Below, piece after piece: positions 3,133 through 4,698 of a stretch of 38,540 nt of DNA. The position numbers and the translations under genes were made by a program. How positions within the stretch are numbered: the first letter of the stretch is position 1; the number at the start of each line of letters is the position of its first letter. The stretch lies in the IMG/VR virus record IMGVR_UViG_2541047933_000012. One strand, given 5' to 3'. The notes below the pieces were generated by a model. That model did not search any database. It had not been told where the DNA came from and saw only the letters and a program-made list of their open reading frames with translations. The DNA is from a virus (lineage: Duplodnaviria; Heunggongvirae; Uroviricota; Caudoviricetes).

Positions 3133-3738
3133 GTGACTTATAAGTTAAATTATAGGCGTTGTGATATGGATATTAATGAATTTCCATCTGGAGTAATCGA
3201 ACATCTTGGCTGGTATGTATACCGCCTAATTGACCCGAGGGATGGCAGTACGTTCTATGTAGGTAAAGGCAAAGGTAATCGTGTCTTTGCTCATATGCGT
3301 GGTGAGGTTGCAGCAGTGGATGATGATGAGTTACTGAATAATAAACTCAGGCAACTTCGAGAGATCAGACTTGCTGGTCTTGATGTGATCCATGTTATTC
3401 ATCGACACGGTATGGCCGAAGAAAAGACCGCTTACGAGGTTGAAGCAGCGCTCATAGACGCTTATCCCGGCTTAACTAACATCATGAACGGTGCTGGCAG
3501 TAATGAGTTCGGTGCTGCACACATAAAAGAATTAATCGCTACGTACCAGCCTGAAACTATTACGTTCCAACATAAGGCCCTAATGATATCGGTTAATAGG
3601 AGTTCAAAGGATATTGACCTCTATGATGCTGTACGTTTTAGCTGGCGTGTCAGCGTTGACCGCGCTCGTAAGGCTGAGATCATACTGGCAACAGTAAGAG
3701 GTATCGTGAGGGGCGCTGTTGCAAATAGTCGGTGGTGA
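3133..3738 (+). CDS. GIY-YIG nuclease family protein whose 3-prime end is fused to the IS26-like left end (likely truncated)
   Basis: GIY-YIG-type motif (WYVYRL...[10 protein letters not shown]...H); the last ~8 codons are encoded by the IS left inverted repeat. Probable start at the internal Met at 3166. Confidence 0.45.
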
Positions 3739-4537
3739 TAAACTTATCATCCCTTTTTGCTGATGGAGCTGCACATGAACCCATTCAAAGGCCGGCATTT
3801 TCAGCGTGACATCATTCTGTGGGCCGTACGCTGGTACTGCAAATACGGCATCAGTTACCGTGAGCTGCAGGAGATGCTGGCTGAACGCGGAGTGAATGTC
3901 GATCACTCCACGATTTACCGCTGGGTTCAGCGTTATGCGCCTGAAATGGAAAAACGGCTGCGCTGGTACTGGTACTGGCGTAACCCTTCCGATCTTTGCC
4001 CGTGGCACATGGATGAAACCTACGTGAAGGTCAATGGCCGCTGGGCGTATCTGTACCGGGCCGTCGACAGCCGGGGCCGCACTGTCGATTTTTATCTCTC
4101 CTCCCGTCGTAACAGCAAAGCTGCATACCTGTTTCTGGGTAAAATCCTCAACAACGTGAAGAAGTGGCAGATCCCGCGATTCATCAACACGGATAAAGCG
4201 CCCGCCTATGGTCGCGCGCTTGCTCTGCTCAAACGCGAAGGCCGGTGCCCGTCTGACGTTGAACACCGACAGATTAAGTACCGGAACAACGTGATTGAAT
4301 GCGATCATGGCAAACTGAAACGGATAATCGGCGCCACGCTGGGATTTAAATCCATGAAGACGGCTTACGCCACCATCAAAGGTATTGAGGTGATGCGTGC
4401 ACTACGCAAAGGCCAGGCCTCAGCATTTTATTATGGTGATCCCCTGGGCGAAATGCGCCTGGTAAGCAGAGTTTTTGAAATGTAAGGCCTTTGAATAAGA
4501 CAAAAGGCTGCCTCATCGCTAACTTTGCAACAGTGCC
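3712..4537 (+). mobile_element. IS26-like insertion sequence (IS6 family)
   Basis: Terminal inverted repeats GGCGCTGTTGCAAA (3712-3725) and TTTGCAACAGTGCC (4524-4537) flank an IS26-type transposase ORF; the left repeat differs at one position from the right. Confidence 0.85.
3757..4485 (+). CDS. tnpA: IS6-family (IS26-type) DDE transposase
   Basis: 242-aa ORF MNPFKGRHFQRDIILWAVRWYCKYGISYRELQEM...LVSRVFEM, near-identical to IS26 Tnp as recalled, except an in-frame 6-bp duplication (RWYWYWRN) and an R-to-L change (AAYLFLG). Confidence 0.9.
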   Translation: MLMELHMNPFKGRHFQRDIILWAVRWYCKYGISYRELQEMLAERGVNVDHSTIYRWVQRYAPEMEKRLRWYWYWRNPSDLCPWHMDETYVKVNGRWAYLYRAVDSRGRTVDFYLSSRRNSKAAYLFLGKILNNVKKWQIPRFINTDKAPAYGRALALLKREGRCPSDVEHRQIKYRNNVIECDHGKLKRIIGATLGFKSMKTAYATIKGIEVMRALRKGQASAFYYGDPLGEMRLVSRVFEM

Positions 4538-4698
4538 GATGCCTCCACCACGCTGCAGAGTTCTTCCTGCAACATGTCAAAGTAGTCATCATCCAGATCG
4601 GTGGCAGGCGTGCCTGTCTGGGGGTTACCACGGGTAAAACCGTTCTTACCCGCGCCGAACTTATCCTTCTGCGCGGTTTTCGTGTCTATACGATGCAT
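4538..4698 (-). pseudogene. Tail-fibre gene 5-prime fragment truncated by the IS26-like element
   Basis: Minus-strand ATG at 4698 opens MHRIDTKTAQKDKFGAGKNGFTRGNPQTGTPATDLDDDYFDMLQEEL..., which runs straight into the IS right repeat after 53 codons. It sits where the tail fibre follows the gp48-like gene. Confidence 0.45.

Follow-up and report, generated by a model that had tools for sequence, protein, structure and literature searches.

What did an IS26-like element do to the tail-fibre region of this prophage, given that the 8 bp on its two sides differ? The window, by which we mean the whole stretch of DNA that was analysed (38,540 nt), comes from scaffold KE702294.1 of Escherichia coli UMEA 3298-1 (assembly GCA_000461155.1, 1.30 Mb). 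An earlier note on this DNA had answered the question with an IS-mediated deletion of the fibre, its assembly gene and the adjacent cargo. To locate the rearrangement we used three sets of coordinates: those of the window, those of the scaffold (prefixed L003; window position x is L003 x + 6835) and those of the corresponding prophage locus of E. coli UTI89 (prefixed L004). The features of the window are listed in Table 1.

Table 1. Features at and around the IS26 insertion, in window coordinates.
Feature	Position	Strand	Details or evidence
Pin/Gin-type serine invertase remnant, 42 aa	1..129	+	Resolvase N-terminal domain PF00239, E = 2.9e-9
Visible part of the inverted segment (reversed prophage cargo)	1..3711		blastn against UTI89
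GmrSD-type (DUF262/DUF1524) type IV restriction-like gene, 629 aa	225..2114	-	Pfam: GmrSD_N 7.2e-34, GmrSD_C 3.8e-20
Truncated LEM-3-like GIY-YIG gene	3166..3738	+	Pfam PF22945; comparison with the 257-aa UTI89 protein
TCGTGAGG, 8-bp target copy in the GIY-YIG gene	3704..3711	+	
IS26-family insertion sequence, copy B	3712..4537	+	826 bp; IRL 3712-3725, tnp ORF 3775-4485 (236 aa), IRR 4524-4537
6-bp tandem duplication CTGGTA in tnp26	3963..3968	+	Alignment with three IS26 copies of E. coli T16R
Tail-fibre 5' remnant, 59-aa ORF	4519..4698	-	Tail-fibre PHROG families, E ~1e-29
GATGCCTC, IS flank on the tail-fibre side	4538..4545	+	
YmfQ / Mu gp48-like baseplate gene, first of the undisturbed tail-module genes	4702..5286	-	Pfam PF10076

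The element, which we call copy B, belongs to the IS26 family, and all coordinates given for it and its surroundings in the earlier note proved right. Its left inverted repeat (IRL) is GGCGCTGTTGCAAA with one mismatch, and its right inverted repeat (IRR) matches GGCACTGTTGCAAA exactly, on the minus strand. The 236-aa transposase is encoded by a single ORF and matches the Pfam family PF13610 (DDE_Tnp_IS240) with E = 1.5e-47. At least 5,000 plasmid sequences match copy B and bear the annotation “IS6-like element IS26 family transposase”; the top plasmid matches have 99.3% identity, with a 6-bp gap as the sole difference. We took the IS26 copies of E. coli T16R as the canonical reference for SNP calls. 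Against two of these copies the identity is 98.9%, with one 6-bp gap and three SNPs: 3715 A>G (IRL position 4), 3754 C>T (position 43) and 4130 G>T, which gives R119L. A literature search did not find a published name for the R119L variant. Canonical IS26 has a length of 820 bp, and the surplus in the 826-bp copy B is the internal CTGGTA duplication. The duplication adds Trp-Tyr to the transposase (WYW becomes WYWYW), 12 residues ahead of the first catalytic Asp. In an exact protein look-up, the 236-aa transposase with this insertion was on record from one contig only. NC_017647.1 (E. coli strain CE10) and several ~120-kb plasmids carry an IS26 that equals copy B minus the duplication, and E. 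coli plasmids such as NC_017647.1 are a plausible source of the prophage variant.

The ISfinder rule for isoforms is a nucleotide identity of >95%, and copy B lies within it. Varani et al. (2021; PMC7986276) give the identity limits for isoforms differently. With IS26 of the IS6/IS26 family, copy B shares the 14-bp terminal inverted repeats, the single DDE transposase (PF13610) and the 8-bp target. By its size and repeats, its transposase, its identity and its 8-bp target, copy B is an IS26. When the 38,540-nt window was searched for further IS26 ends, only a chance match with 2 mismatches was found at 21742, and the window thus holds no other copy.

Both neighboring genes are cut by the element, as the earlier note had described. 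On the right, the minus-strand tail-fibre ORF is interrupted after 53 codons. The 161 nt from 4698 to 4538 (53 codons + 2 nt) agree in every base with the beginning of the UTI89 gene for a 247-aa tail-fibre protein, and the frame continues for 19 nt inside the IS to a stop at 4519. On the left, the GIY-YIG ORF runs into the left end of the IS. It begins with the ATG at 3166, retains 182 of the 257 native codons (3166-3711) and then reads 8 IS-encoded codons (GAVANSRW) before the TGA at 3736-3738. The resulting protein of 190 aa keeps the catalytic domain (residues 28-110) and has lost 75 C-terminal residues. An exact look-up of the same GIY-YIG fusion ORF with the canonical IRL found it not on record. 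The two 8-bp flanks do not form a direct duplication, which also agrees with the first description of the locus.

The ancestral arrangement of the region can be read from UTI89. Positions 4538-38540 of the window are identical to L004 9001-43003, without a mismatch over 34,003 bp. Following ymfQ, UTI89 has the fibre gene (247 aa), tfaE and, in the opposite orientation, a second tfa with an alternative fibre C-terminal cassette. The order continues with a 42-aa invertase remnant, a GmrSD gene (DUF262), a DinI pseudogene, the LEM-3-like GIY-YIG gene, two further genes and ssrA. In a blastn comparison, window 1-3713 corresponds to L004 6877-3165 on the opposite strand, with 100% identity and 0 gaps. 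To the left of copy B, the prophage's own cargo DNA thus lies in reverse, an arrangement that no simple deletion can produce. The comparison with a related intact prophage had been suggested as a means to define a missing segment; what it reveals is a left flank that is inverted, not deleted. The GmrSD-type gene is intact within the inverted segment, and the truncation of the invertase gene is the same in UTI89, where it is annotated as a pseudogene (“recombinase family protein, incomplete”). Nor was the GIY-YIG gene brought in and fused by the IS, as had been supposed. It is a resident gene of the UTI89-type prophage that was itself split, in the same event as the fibre gene. In total the inverted segment corresponds to L004 3167-9000 (5,834 bp), of which the remaining 2.1 kb lie upstream of window position 1.

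In order to determine which of the two arrangements is derived, we looked for both breakpoints in complete E. coli genomes. In 119 of these the sequence runs through the GIY-YIG breakpoint without interruption, with an identity of ≥99% in 113 cases. For the fibre breakpoint the number is 516, and the ancestral gene order is common to at least 113 genomes. Neither of the IS junctions, nor the same rearranged structure, was found among the complete E. coli genomes. As the breakpoints are uninterrupted elsewhere and no complete genome has the IS junctions, the window shows the derived state.

The source scaffold carries a second IS26, copy A. It begins at L003 5391, ~1.4 kb upstream of window position 1, with its IRR end first. 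Copy B occupies L003 10547-11372 with its IRL end first, and the two copies are thus inverted relative to each other. Copy A adjoins the 3' part of the GIY-YIG gene (L003 2217-5390 equals L004 1-3174, 100%), and the 75 C-terminal codons absent from the window gene are found here. Within the 654 bp available for comparison, the copies show 0 mismatches and one 6-bp gap, as the CTGGTA duplication is missing from copy A.

The 8 bp flanking copy A (L003 5383-5390) are CCTCACGA, the reverse complement of the copy B flank TCGTGAGG. UTI89 holds this 8-mer once, at L004 3167-3174. The target in the GIY-YIG gene is thus present as an inverted duplication, with CCTCACGA at the IRR of copy A and TCGTGAGG at the IRL of copy B. 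The earlier note had named a matching 8-bp duplication as one observation that would speak against a deletion. There is indeed no direct copy at copy B; an inverted one lies beside the second IS26, outside the window.

The far side of copy A is interrupted in the scaffold. After 654 bp of the copy there is a run of 710 Ns (L003 6045-6754), and the sequence resumes at the equivalent of L004 6958. We infer that the gap contains ~166 bp of IS26 followed by L004 6959-9000, a stretch of 2,042 bp with fibre nt 162-744, tfaE, the second tfa, the alternative cassette and a pix-like site. Next to the IRL of copy A, at a position inside the gap, we predict GAGGCATC, the reciprocal partner of GATGCCTC. 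The same assembly contains a contig of 2,089 bp that encodes ERB28354.1 (“phage tail collar protein, partial”), a 177-aa protein equal to residues 71-247 of the UTI89 fibre. Thus, the distal fibre coding sequence is still in the genome. The size of this contig relative to the missing 2,042 bp and its likely overlap of ~96 bp with the next contig suggest that it fills the scaffold gap. If it is colinear with UTI89, the contig covers ~L004 6863-8951, which leaves 49 bp between its end and the IS. Many E. coli prophages carry copies of the fibre 5' region, with up to 9 places per genome among complete E. coli genomes. Because of this repetition and because only 49 bp separate the contig from the IS, we attribute the 710-N gap to a failure of the assembly at repeats and regard its estimated size as unreliable (~2.2 kb would be expected). 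A secondary deletion within the gap may also have occurred. We carried out an exact look-up of the ORFs predicted across the junction of the copy A IRL with the fibre 3' part, which falls in the gap, using versions with and without the 8-bp duplication, seven start codons and three contig-edge versions. None was on record, apart from a 158-aa internal-start product that other strains have.

These observations are well explained by one known activity of the element. We consider it likely that the two inverted IS26 copies bracket a 5.8-kb segment that was flipped by intramolecular replicative transposition of IS26 in trans. In the first step, an IS26 variant of the kind found on ExPEC F-type plasmids would have inserted in one of the two genes, probably the tail-fibre gene. 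In the second, it would have transposed replicatively, in trans and within the same molecule, into the LEM-3-like GIY-YIG gene 5.8 kb away. [quoted passage not shown] Both genes would be split by this step. The 53-codon 5' end of the fibre gene would remain with the baseplate operon, and the fibre 3' end, both tail-fibre assembly genes and the alternative cassette would come to lie reversed, 5.8 kb away. No deletion would be required.

That intramolecular transposition of IS26 in trans leads to inversion is stated by He et al. (2015, mBio; PMC4471558), and the same outcome is described by Varani et al. (2021; PMC7986276). From the pathway we derive that the two target copies should be found at the IRR of one IS and at the IRL of the other, which is where CCTCACGA and TCGTGAGG lie. 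Three of the four defining features of the pathway are thus observed; the fourth, the split flanks of the donor site, falls in the gap. As to which gene was entered first, 3 Logan contigs from other sequencing runs have the IS26/fibre junction too, and the Logan contig L007 (ERR4556455, an independent assembly) matches window 4508-14698 with 100% identity over 10,191 bp. For the fusion ORF of GIY-YIG and IS26, the UMEA 3298-1 scaffold is the sole record. This difference weakly suggests that IS26 entered the fibre gene first and the GIY-YIG gene later. Counting against a one-step inversion is the 6-bp difference between the copies, since a fresh replicative copy would match its parent. The difference may still fit the one-step route if copy B gained the duplication afterwards or if the assembly introduced it by error.

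The same four junctions and the same end product could also have been generated by two independent IS26 insertions in opposite orientation, each with its own direct 8-bp duplication, followed by a RecA-dependent homologous recombination that flipped the 5.8 kb between them. The final sequence alone is compatible with both routes. A 6-bp duplication in only one copy is easier to understand if the copies have separate histories, which mildly favors independent insertions, and there are other isolates that have the IS26/fibre junction without a recorded GIY-YIG junction. Some authors interpret such structures in this way, according to He et al. (PMC4471558). However, this route needs three events instead of two. 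The copies are moreover identical over 654 bp except for the 6-bp duplication, with the same rare variant SNP in both, and for this pattern He et al. hold the one-step route to be the likelier one. We therefore regard independent insertions followed by recombination as rather unlikely.

Another question is whether the segment is flipped at all. UMEA 3298-1 was assembled as a short-read draft, and the path through an 826-bp repeat with an inverted twin 5.8 kb away rests on read pairs. The IS exceeds the length of the short reads, and the four junctions between unique and IS sequence are the same in the flipped and the unflipped isomer. Two simple IS26 insertions without inversion, or a mixture of isomers, could therefore appear as an inversion if the assembler picked the flipped path through the repeat. 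The scaffold gap directly beside the second copy and the misfit of its size (710 N against ~2.2 kb) would be in line with this. On the other hand, the window copy is unbroken with both of its flanks in a 1.3-Mb scaffold, and the assembly has kept the copies distinct, with the 6-bp duplication in one only. We find such an assembly error quite unlikely. Should it nevertheless be the case, a deletion would still be the wrong reading, and the interruption of the fibre gene would stand. In the cell, recombination between the copies could restore the orientation of the segment, yet it could restore neither gene.

The weakest explanation is an IS26-mediated adjacent deletion in cis that removed the distal fibre, the assembly gene and cargo and joined the fibre stump to an unrelated GIY-YIG gene: the IS26 literature (PMC4471558, PMC7986276) describes adjacent deletions by this element, copy B has no direct target duplication and the scaffold gap is shorter than expected, but the left flank runs in the opposite direction to the ancestral sequence and not colinear with it, a second, inverted IS26 carries the other half of GIY-YIG and the inverted 8-bp partner, the GmrSD gene, the DinI remnant and the invertase remnant that should have been lost are present in window 1-3711, and the distal fibre coding sequence is in the same assembly, so that we find a deletion barely tenable. 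For the segment as a whole it is ruled out by the orientation of the left flank together with the second IS copy.

With in-trans inversion as the preferred reading, we turn to what it means for the phage. In the full-length UTI89 fibre the Collar domain (PF07484 in Pfam) spans residues 108-155, downstream of the break. The collar and receptor-binding part is consequently split from the 53-codon start, lies in the opposite orientation and is left there without its own start codon. A second tail-fibre gene was not found within the window, where everything from 4538 onward is identical to the UTI89 prophage, which is annotated with a single fibre locus. Since the fibre gene is split and the window offers no other, fibre-less particles are predicted, and it is a reasonable inference that the prophage is adsorption-defective. 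Here the earlier note, which had held adsorption-competent virions to be unlikely, made a reasonable prediction, as the fibre gene is non-functional as it stands. Taken together, one rearrangement has very probably cost an SfV-like prophage its tail fibre and one cargo gene with a putative role in defence, and has left all other parts of the prophage untouched.

The bracketed 5.8 kb hold GmrSD, two tail-fibre assembly genes and the fibre receptor-binding cassettes. One could imagine this segment as an IS26-bounded mobile unit or a recombinational flip-flop, which would be able to carry phage host-range and defence genes to plasmids or other prophages; we consider this very improbable. The value of the present case is mainly corrective, and it opens no new question. 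Its lesson is that an IS26 copy without a direct duplication should not be taken as a sign of a deletion before the other copies in the replicon have been checked for an inverted 8-bp partner.

To place the prophage among its relatives, we compared it with the serotype-converting Shigella phages SfV, SfII, SfIV and SfI and with the ssrA-linked prophages of E. coli UTI89, S88, IHE3034 and ATCC 11775. Over 34 kb it is 100% identical to the prophage of UTI89. The Mu-like tail and baseplate module of the Sf phages is 97.5-97.9% identical to that of the prophage. Both groups share the order of baseplate genes, fibre gene and tail-fibre assembly gene, followed by cargo. In SfV the cargo slot is taken by gtrABV, whereas the prophage has GmrSD, GIY-YIG and DpnII/MboI-like genes in it. 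Unlike the Sf phages, the prophage has an invertible fibre cassette and a truncated invertase, and in this strain the fibre end has been rearranged by IS26. Fibres of the SfV orf21 / StfP-like type consist of an N-terminal baseplate-attachment region followed by a collar/receptor-binding domain. Both the remnant and the UTI89 protein fit this layout.

Published in-trans inversions likewise show an opposite pair of IS26 around inverted DNA, a split gene and inverted 8-bp copies. The model expects two 8-bp pairs, of which one is visible here. Most of the published cases are from resistance plasmids, whereas the one in UMEA 3298-1 is chromosomal, in a prophage and without a resistance gene. The rearrangement is thus the work of a known element by a known mechanism, in a prophage and not in a resistance plasmid, and it provides a clean chromosomal, non-resistance example of a process usually documented in the latter. 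A parallel case is found in E. coli T16R (NZ_CP046716.1). Here a related prophage (~97.6% identity) has its stfP truncated beside an IS26-bounded resistance region, a multi-IS26 island with fosA3, rmtB, blaTEM-1 and blaCTX-M-55. The event in T16R is independent and hit another position in the gene, which indicates that the fibre locus of these prophages has been struck by IS26 more than once.

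The IS26 copy in the window is a variant with three SNPs, at 3715 (IRL position 4, A>G), 3754 (position 43, C>T) and 4130 (R119L). Save for a 6-bp duplication, the same variant is found on many E. coli plasmids, e.g., NC_017647.1 from strain CE10, and matching copies are also borne by several E. coli plasmids of ~120 kb. The plasmid copies are a likely source of the chromosomal ones. A literature search found no published name for the three-SNP variant.

The 6-bp duplication is a tandem repeat of CTGGTA within tnp26, through which the transposase gains Trp-Tyr between its HTH region and its DDE domain. 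The 236-aa product, WP_021569704.1, is recorded from just one contig. The duplication is missing from the second IS26 copy on the same scaffold, and it may reflect either a genuine slip or an error of assembly.

IS26 also contains a long antisense ORF. At the predicted hidden junction, where the IRL of the second copy would meet the 3′ part of the fibre gene, this ORF would share the reading frame of the fibre sequence and could reach 393 aa at most. This is probably meaningless, though gene callers could be misled by it.

In E. coli T16R, a multi-IS26 resistance island adjoins a truncated stfP of a related prophage. The island carries fosA3, rmtB1, blaTEM-1 and blaCTX-M-55 and includes an IS26 copy of the G184N variant. 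This is a case independent of the rearrangement in the window.

Coordinates of the features (L003, source scaffold KE702294.1; L004, UTI89 prophage region; L005, T16R, NZ_CP046716.1)
Feature	Coordinates	Strand	Remark
CTGGTA duplication	window 3963-3968		
IS26 antisense ORF	window 3604-4308	minus	234 aa here; open through IRL into flank
20-bp inverted repeat	L004 6939-6958 and 8858-8877		CTTCTCCCAAACCAACGTTT / ...AAGGTTT
Invertase remnant	window 1-129		42 aa
Scaffold gap	L003 6045-6754		710 Ns
T16R island and stfP	L005 1-10951		
Cargo slot	window 225-3711; L003 3581-4944		
Post-integrase genes	window 37586-38540; L004 42049-44249		
Imperfect repeat	L004 about 938-1132 and 44060-44249		~190 bp; 89.8%

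In UTI89, the 1.9-kb fibre-tip/tfa cassette is flanked on both sides by a 20-bp inverted repeat, which may resemble Gin/Pin crossover sites. The adjoining invertase is reduced to a 42-aa remnant both in UTI89 and in this strain. The inner edge of one repeat arm coincides exactly with the start of the source contig, and the scaffold gap is represented by fewer Ns than the ~2.2 kb expected. In several further E. coli draft assemblies, too, the fibre cassette lies on orphan contigs of 1.97–2.18 kb (partial proteins P0051–P0059), so short-read assembly seems to fail in this region independently of IS26.

Defence-like genes occupy the cargo slot that separates the fibre module from ssrA: GmrSD (DUF262/DUF1524), a LEM-3-like GIY-YIG protein, a DpnII/MboI-like protein, a DinI pseudogene and a small hypothetical protein. 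Beyond the integrase lie three genes, encoding a hypothetical protein, a protein with a STAS-like domain and a further hypothetical protein of 303 aa, and these precede an imperfect repeat of the ssrA-proximal sequence. This arrangement indicates that the att-bounded element extends past the end of the window and has a second small cargo block. In SfV, the slot corresponding to that between the fibre module and ssrA is occupied by gtrABV.
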